From NCBI RefSeq assembly GCF_003334315.1, contig NZ_QOWR01000040.1: a stretch of DNA of 43,800 bases; one strand, given 5' to 3'. The notes beneath the pieces are model-generated. The model was not told where the DNA came from. It was given only the letters and a program-made list of their open reading frames with translations, and did no database searches. The position numbers and the translations under genes are program-made. The stretch's first letter is position 1. Each line of letters begins with the position of its first letter. The stretch is from Escherichia coli (GTDB taxonomy: Bacteria; Pseudomonadota; Gammaproteobacteria; Enterobacterales; Enterobacteriaceae). Positions 7,455 through 7,487 of the stretch are shown piece after piece.

Positions 7455-7487
7455 AAAGATGGGGATAAAGAGAGAAAAAACAAGGCC
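7455..7487 (-). promoter_or_regulatory. Candidate sigma-32 (heat-shock) promoter upstream of ybeZ
   Basis: Minus strand reads CCTTGTT-(13 nt)-CCCCATCT, close to the sigma-32 consensus CTTGAA-N13-14-CCCCATNT; ybeZ is a reported sigma-32 regulon member. Confidence 0.45.

Follow-up and report, generated by a model that had tools for sequence, protein, structure and literature searches.

The known sigma-32 promoter of the ybeZ-ybeY-ybeX-lnt operon in Escherichia coli is the weaker, upstream member of a tandem promoter pair

The window analysed here is a stretch of 43,800 nucleotides from Escherichia coli (NCBI RefSeq assembly GCF_003334315.1, contig NZ_QOWR01000040.1), and the interval of interest lies between miaB and ybeZ. 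The window is chromosomal DNA of E. coli: a 501-nt query at the site, extending over miaB and ybeZ, matched 5425 of 5426 complete E. coli genomes, and window positions 7330-7560 were 100% identical to K-12 MG1655 693350-693580. A window coordinate is obtained by subtracting 686020 from the NC_000913.3 coordinate, and in this region NC_000913.3 equals U00096.2 plus 777. The genes of the locus, all on the same strand, are as follows:

Positions 7511-8935, minus strand: miaB coding sequence, the upstream gene, with its stop codon TAA at 7513-7511 (ORF list and RefSeq annotation of identical E. coli DNA)
Positions 6318-7358, minus strand: ybeZ, encoding a PhoH-like protein, with start codon TTG at 7358 (in RefSeq, NP_415193.2 begins at 693378, equivalent to window 7358)
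Positions 5854-6321, minus strand: ybeY, downstream operon gene (ORF list)
Positions 4886-5764, minus strand: ybeX/corC, downstream operon gene (ORF list)
Positions 3323-4861, minus strand: lnt, downstream operon gene (ORF list)

The genes ybeZ, ybeY, ybeX and lnt were assigned to one transcription unit (Cho 2014), and in later papers ybeZ, ybeY and ybeX are members of the RpoH regulon that are co-transcribed with lnt. Upstream of ybeZ, the elements of a sigma-32 promoter and the intrinsic terminator of miaB share part of the intergenic DNA:

Positions 7483-7505, minus strand: miaB intrinsic terminator hairpin AGGCCTGCCG-TTC-CGGTGGGCCT, with the tail TGTTTTTTCT running to ~7473
Positions 7478-7484, minus strand: sigma-32 -35 element CTTGTTT (consensus CTTGAAA), preceded by C7485 and lying within the Reg-Seq heat-shock footprint of -38 to -11
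Positions 7457-7464, minus strand: sigma-32 extended -10 element CCCCATCT (consensus CCCCATNT), mostly inside the same footprint, whose downstream edge, -11, is 7460
Position 7449, minus strand: A, start of the sigma-32 promoter, NC_000913.3 693469 or U00096.2 692692 (Nonaka 2006 via Reg-Seq Supplementary file 1, and Cho 2014)

In the standard 7-mer notation the promoter reads CTTGTTT-N13-CCCCATCT, which corresponds to a spacing of 14 nt after the 6-mer CTTGTT (7484-7479); the 13 nt of the 7-mer notation agree with the 13 or 14 nt seen in the 17 canonical promoters of the alignment. The -10 element agrees with CCCCATNT at every position. The -35 element is weak for its class, with four of seven consensus positions matched, the CTTG core intact and TTT in place of AAA. 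An initial annotation of this DNA had written the site as CCTTGTT, N13 and a -10 string, and had called it a good match to the consensus. Both strings are indeed on the minus strand (CCTTGTT at 7485-7479, CCCCATCT at 7464-7457), but 14 nt (7478-7465) stand between them as written, and the praise is deserved by the -10 and overstated for the -35.

The start, A7449, falls 8 nt past the last T of CCCCATCT, at the base predicted by the geometry of dnaK P1. In the cryo-EM open complex of dnaK P1 (PMC10216364), CTTGAA (-35 to -30) is followed by N14 and CCCCATTT (-15 to -8), with +1 eight nt later, which is the spacing found at ybeZ. Both promoters combine a CTTG-containing -35 with a CCCCATNT -10 element. 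They differ in that dnaK P1 has CTTGAT/CTTGAA where ybeZ has CTTGTT, in their scores (18.4 bits, leave-one-out, for dnaK P1 versus 14.1 for ybeZ), and in the -35 of ybeZ, which, unlike that of dnaK P1, overlaps a terminator. The site is another copy of the E. coli K-12 ybeZ sigma-32 promoter (Nonaka et al. 2006, Genes Dev 20:1776; start 693469, minus strand), with identical DNA.

The strength of the match was judged with a weight matrix derived from the upstream regions of 18 MG1655 sigma-32 regulon genes (including dnaK, clpP, lon, htpG, clpB, grpE, fxsA, groS, hslV, ibpA and htpX), in which promoters were located by consensus; 17 were used, and an unconvincing miaA site was excluded. Such scoring, which the initial annotation had proposed as a check, placed the ybeZ site at the top of the real window with 14.1 bits, but the score ranks 17th of 18 when set beside the leave-one-out scores of the canonical promoters (9.5-24.8 bits) and is within the chance range for 44 kb, first-order Markov simulations giving a mean of 2.6 matches of at least 14 bits per window. 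What lowers the score is the TTT that replaces AAA in the 3' half of the -35. A looser pattern, CTTG-N16-20-CCCCATNT, was matched a single time in the window, at the ybeZ site, as compared with an expectation of 0.13 from shuffles, of which 12 in 100 had at least one match. The sequence score by itself does not establish a promoter; position, conservation and published experiments do.

Just past the stop codon of miaB, a G+C-rich hairpin is directly followed by a T-tract, the layout of an intrinsic terminator. The stem starts 5 nt past TAA and comprises 10 pairs, 7 of them G-C (terminator scan), around a 3-nt loop; its computed fold of -16.8 kcal/mol has a z of -4.07, and none of 200 shuffles was equally stable. 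The sigma-32 -35 element overlaps the 3' stem and the T-tract of this terminator, an overlap missed when the site was first marked, and the requirement for a T-tract would probably explain why the 3' half of the -35 is poor in E. coli. Other Enterobacteriaceae have a GGCCTGCC...GGCAGGCC-TTG hairpin at the same place. A further 5' end was reported inside miaB at window ~8038 on the minus strand (U00096.2 693281; 20 reads, stationary phase) in a unit that reads into ybeZ (Cho 2014), which points to a degree of read-through at the miaB terminator.

The sigma-32 promoter of ybeZ is already known: the promoter, the start site and the inclusion in the RpoH regulon were all published in 2006. Reg-Seq Supplementary file 1, in its ybeZ entry, quotes the sigma-32 start of Nonaka 2006 as NC_000913.3 693469, which is A7449 of the window. 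The same base was mapped in a second dataset as U00096.2 692692, with 9 reads and with a 51-mer ending in ...CCCCATCTTTATTGCA / ...TTATTGCA; this start was flagged for stationary phase only and not for the heat-shock library (Cho 2014). ChIP binding of sigma-32, sigma-70 and sigma-38 was observed across the region in the same study, and sigma-32 ChIP-chip gave a log2 value of 2.5 at ybeZ (Waldminghaus and Skarstad 2010). The gene had previously been given as a sigma-32 target in Wade 2006, Nonaka 2006 and Zhao 2005. The most direct functional evidence is Reg-Seq Supplementary file 3, in which the bases that determine expression of the ybeZ reporter under heat shock were -38 to -11 (window 7487-7460), almost the interval 7455-7487 marked by the initial annotation, and those in seven other conditions (LB, anaerobic, iron, trehalose, zinc, xylose-arabinose and xanthosine) were at about +4 to +29.

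The initial annotation had expected a start within ~10 bp downstream of 7455, and the published A7449 is 6 bp downstream of that position. Its proposal that a sigma-32-like promoter drives ybeZ-ybeY-ybeX-lnt is supported by the unit assignment and the sigma-32 ChIP of Cho 2014 and by the heat-shock footprint of Reg-Seq. In the main text of a genomic SELEX paper, the ybeZ-miaB spacer stands in the RpoS table and the name 'ybeZ' is absent from the RpoH table. The Cappable-seq supplement (PMC4782308) held no coordinates matching the ybeZ starts, and a full-text literature search by promoter name and sequence returned nothing relevant. The stationary-phase-only flag, the SELEX listing and the second-hand nature of the Nonaka start lower the confidence in the strength of heat induction, not in the identity of the promoter.

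The main promoter of ybeZ, 40 bp downstream, was revealed by cross-species conservation together with published 5'-end data, and consists of the following elements:

Positions 7439-7444, minus strand: -35 hexamer TTGCGC, three of six consensus positions, at +6 to +11 of the sigma-32 start
Positions 7416-7421, minus strand: -10 hexamer AATAAT, five of six consensus positions, after a 17-nt spacer (7438-7422)
Position 7409, minus strand: A, main ybeZ start (U00096.2 692652), 7 nt past the -10 hexamer and 40 bp downstream of A7449

With hexamers 17 nt apart and a start 7 nt after the -10, the arrangement is of the sigma-70/38 type. The A7409 start was detected with 87 reads and a 51-mer ending in ...AATAATTTCCTTA (Kim 2012), and again with 206 reads, as against 9 for A7449, in all four conditions (exponential, stationary, glutamine and heat), with assignment to sigma-70/sigma-38 (Cho 2014). 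In Reg-Seq the '-35' was placed at +4 to +9 or +4 to +17 in LB and zinc and at -5 to +8 in xylose-arabinose, the '-10' extended from +21/25 to +29, and the RNAP site index was 144 versus the usual 104, that is, +40. The A7409 promoter carries most of the transcription, and the sigma-32 promoter is the weaker upstream member of a tandem pair. A built-in sigma-70 consensus scan returned no promoter in 7000-7900, a false negative for the 7409 promoter; the scan and the initial annotation both missed it because its -35 hexamer matches only three of six positions.

In arrays of stationary-phase delta-rpoS cells, ybeZ fell from ~12.0 to ~9.2 log2 and ybeY from ~11.7 to ~9.5 (about 5- to 6-fold), ybeX went down by ~0.9 log2, and lnt and miaB were unchanged (Cho 2014). 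Furthermore, RpoS holoenzyme binds the ybeZ-miaB spacer in genomic SELEX. These results suggest a dependence of the operon on sigma-38 in stationary phase, with lnt expressed in part independently. The locus resembles the overlap of sigma factors described by Wade et al. 2006 and Cho et al. 2014, in that sigma-32 and sigma-70/38 ChIP signals likewise cover one region and one operon. It differs from overlap at a shared site in having two distinct promoters 40 bp apart, and the switch between conditions is directly visible in the Reg-Seq footprints. Within the spacer of the 7409 promoter, Reg-Seq also reports a 'repressor' site at +15 to +29 (window 7420-7434, minus strand); a repressor may truly act there, or mutations there may improve a sub-optimal promoter (AATAAT to TATAAT, or a TG extended -10).

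Conservation was followed across Enterobacterales in 80 species, each represented by one orthologous locus. Genera vary by 1 nt in how far apart the two promoters lie, so that an ungapped alignment with the sigma-70 -35 hexamer as its anchor blurred the columns of the sigma-32 promoter; matrix scoring of each locus was used instead. Within 200 nt upstream of ybeZ, 26 of the 80 species have a site that scores at least 14 bits and 42 have one of at least 10 bits, and a 200-nt control inside ybeZ gave 0 of 80 at either threshold. E. coli is outscored by Citrobacter, Kluyvera, Phytobacter and others, which have CTTGTAT or CTTGTAA ... CCCCATAT and reach 17.9-19.7 bits. The CTTG of the -35 is kept in orthologous loci, the variants in other genera being CTTGTAT, CTTGTAA, CTTGCAT and CTTGAAT, and the -10 position in Enterobacteriaceae is occupied by CCCCATAT, CCCCATCT or CCCAATAT. 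Erwiniaceae and their relatives retain CTTGC(A/T)TTC-N-CCCAAATAT, and Hafnia carries GTTGAAA-N14-CCCCATTG, at 18.1 bits. The spacers have diverged while both elements and the distance between them are kept, as would be expected if the promoter is functional.

The downstream promoter is better conserved than the sigma-32 elements, with a mean information of 1.78 bits per column in the -35 and 1.89 in the -10. A strict TTGCGC/AATAAT pattern with a spacer of 16-18 nt (17 nt in most loci) is present in 49 of the 80 loci, again with diverged spacer sequence, and it extends to genera as distant as Serratia, Yersinia, Dickeya and Pantoea. An intergenic promoter is absent from Proteus, Xenorhabdus, Photorhabdus and Moellerella, in which ybeZ lies within a few tens of nt of the miaB stop. 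Two Photorhabdus loci (L072 and L076) contain a 15.5-bit sigma-32-like GTTGAAA-N13-CGCCAACT inside the 3' end of miaB, ~164 nt upstream of ybeZ, and this site may be fortuitous because it overlaps conserved coding sequence.

Taken together, the motif is, with a probability of about 0.93, the sigma-32 (RpoH) promoter of the ybeZ-ybeY-ybeX(corC)-lnt operon. The least probable reading is one of coincidence, in which CCTTGTTTTTT would be merely the 3' stem and U-tract of the miaB terminator, CCCCAT would stand nearby by chance, and ybeZ would be transcribed from the sigma-70/38 promoter and by miaB read-through only. The position of the -35 element inside a terminator, a matrix score within the chance range for a 44-kb window and the dominance of A7409, with 206 versus 9 reads, would all fit such a coincidence. 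However, two independent datasets put a start exactly at the base expected for a sigma-32 promoter, a sigma-32 ChIP signal is present, and the mutational footprint shifts to -38 to -11 under heat shock. In addition, CTTG and CCC(C/A)AT keep a fixed spacing even where the terminator is elsewhere, as in Shimwellia, Buttiauxella, Pantoea and Hafnia.

It is also very improbable that the A7449 start is real and serves mainly sigma-38/sigma-70, as a stationary-phase rather than a heat-shock promoter. Such a role would agree with the flagging of 692692 in stationary phase only and its joint assignment to sigma-70, sigma-38 and sigma-32 (Cho 2014), with the decrease of ybeZ and ybeY in stationary delta-rpoS cells by about 5- to 6-fold, and with the binding of RpoS holoenzyme to the spacer in genomic SELEX. 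The rpoS dependence is more simply due to the 7409 promoter, which was assigned to sigma-70/38 in the same work (Cho 2014). Moreover, positions -12 to -7 of A7449 read CATCTT, which is not an acceptable sigma-70/38 -10, whereas the sigma-32 -10 is perfect. Sigma-32 also increases in stationary phase, which weakens the case for a sigma-38 or sigma-70 start at A7449. Finally, the Reg-Seq footprint of -38 to -11 appears under heat shock only.

On the preferred reading of a sigma-32 promoter, RNA polymerase carrying sigma-32 would recognise CTTGTT (7484-7479) and CCCCATCT (7464-7457), start at A7449, and add stress-induced transcription of an operon for ribosome maturation and quality control. The sigma-70/38-type promoter at A7409 supplies most of the transcripts in all sampled conditions. 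The two promoters would be expected to compete, as the polymerase footprints must overlap. The tandem arrangement would explain constitutive expression together with a heat-stress boost of the ribosome-maturation operon (YbeZ, YbeY, CorC). Whether the miaB terminator, the sigma-32 promoter and the sigma-70/38 promoter form a deliberate, conserved switch, with mutual exclusion of the promoters and miaB read-through occluding both, is doubtful. Were such a switch to operate, the prevailing sigma factor would set the 5' leader (91 nt or 51 nt) and the output of the operon, and the longer heat-shock leader might have a regulatory role of its own. The result has little significance as a discovery, and the value of the check is practical: a genuine, even weak, sigma-32 promoter was recognisable from raw sequence, and the score alone was insufficient to justify the call.

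Both starts, A7449 and A7409, are upstream of the two candidate start codons of ybeZ, ATG 7397 and TTG 7358, as had been said at the outset of the predicted sigma-32 start. The TTG is preceded by a ribosome-binding sequence:

Positions 7364-7370, minus strand: Shine-Dalgarno sequence AAGAGGA, 5 nt before the TTG start, with AAGAGGA and then TTG conserved in orthologous loci

TTG is the start of ybeZ in 73 of the 80 orthologous loci. ATG 7397 was rejected as a start codon: it belongs to the 5' leader, is 12 nt away from A7409 and has no ribosome-binding site, and an in-frame upstream ATG is present in only 17 of the 80 loci. A search of 7000-8000 against Rfam, with E-values up to 1, gave no match, and thus no known RNA element competes for the interval. 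The ybeZ 5' leader (7359-7408) varies greatly in length and sequence among genera, with an insertion of ~30 nt in Pseudocitrobacter, and the E. coli leader may form a GCCGG...CCGGC hairpin.

A layout that mimics the miaB-ybeZ spacer was noticed between ybeY and corC (5771-5823, minus strand), where a terminator-like hairpin CGCCGTTGGTGATTAACGACGGCG is followed by TTTTGATTAA. Immediately after this hairpin, at 5798-5771, lies a sigma-32-like TTTGATT-N13-ACCCATAC that scores 10.4 bits. It was rejected as a second heat-shock promoter, with ~22 such matches expected per window and a -10 only 6 nt before the ATG of corC. In Salmonella, a paper cites a transcription start located between ybeY and corC.
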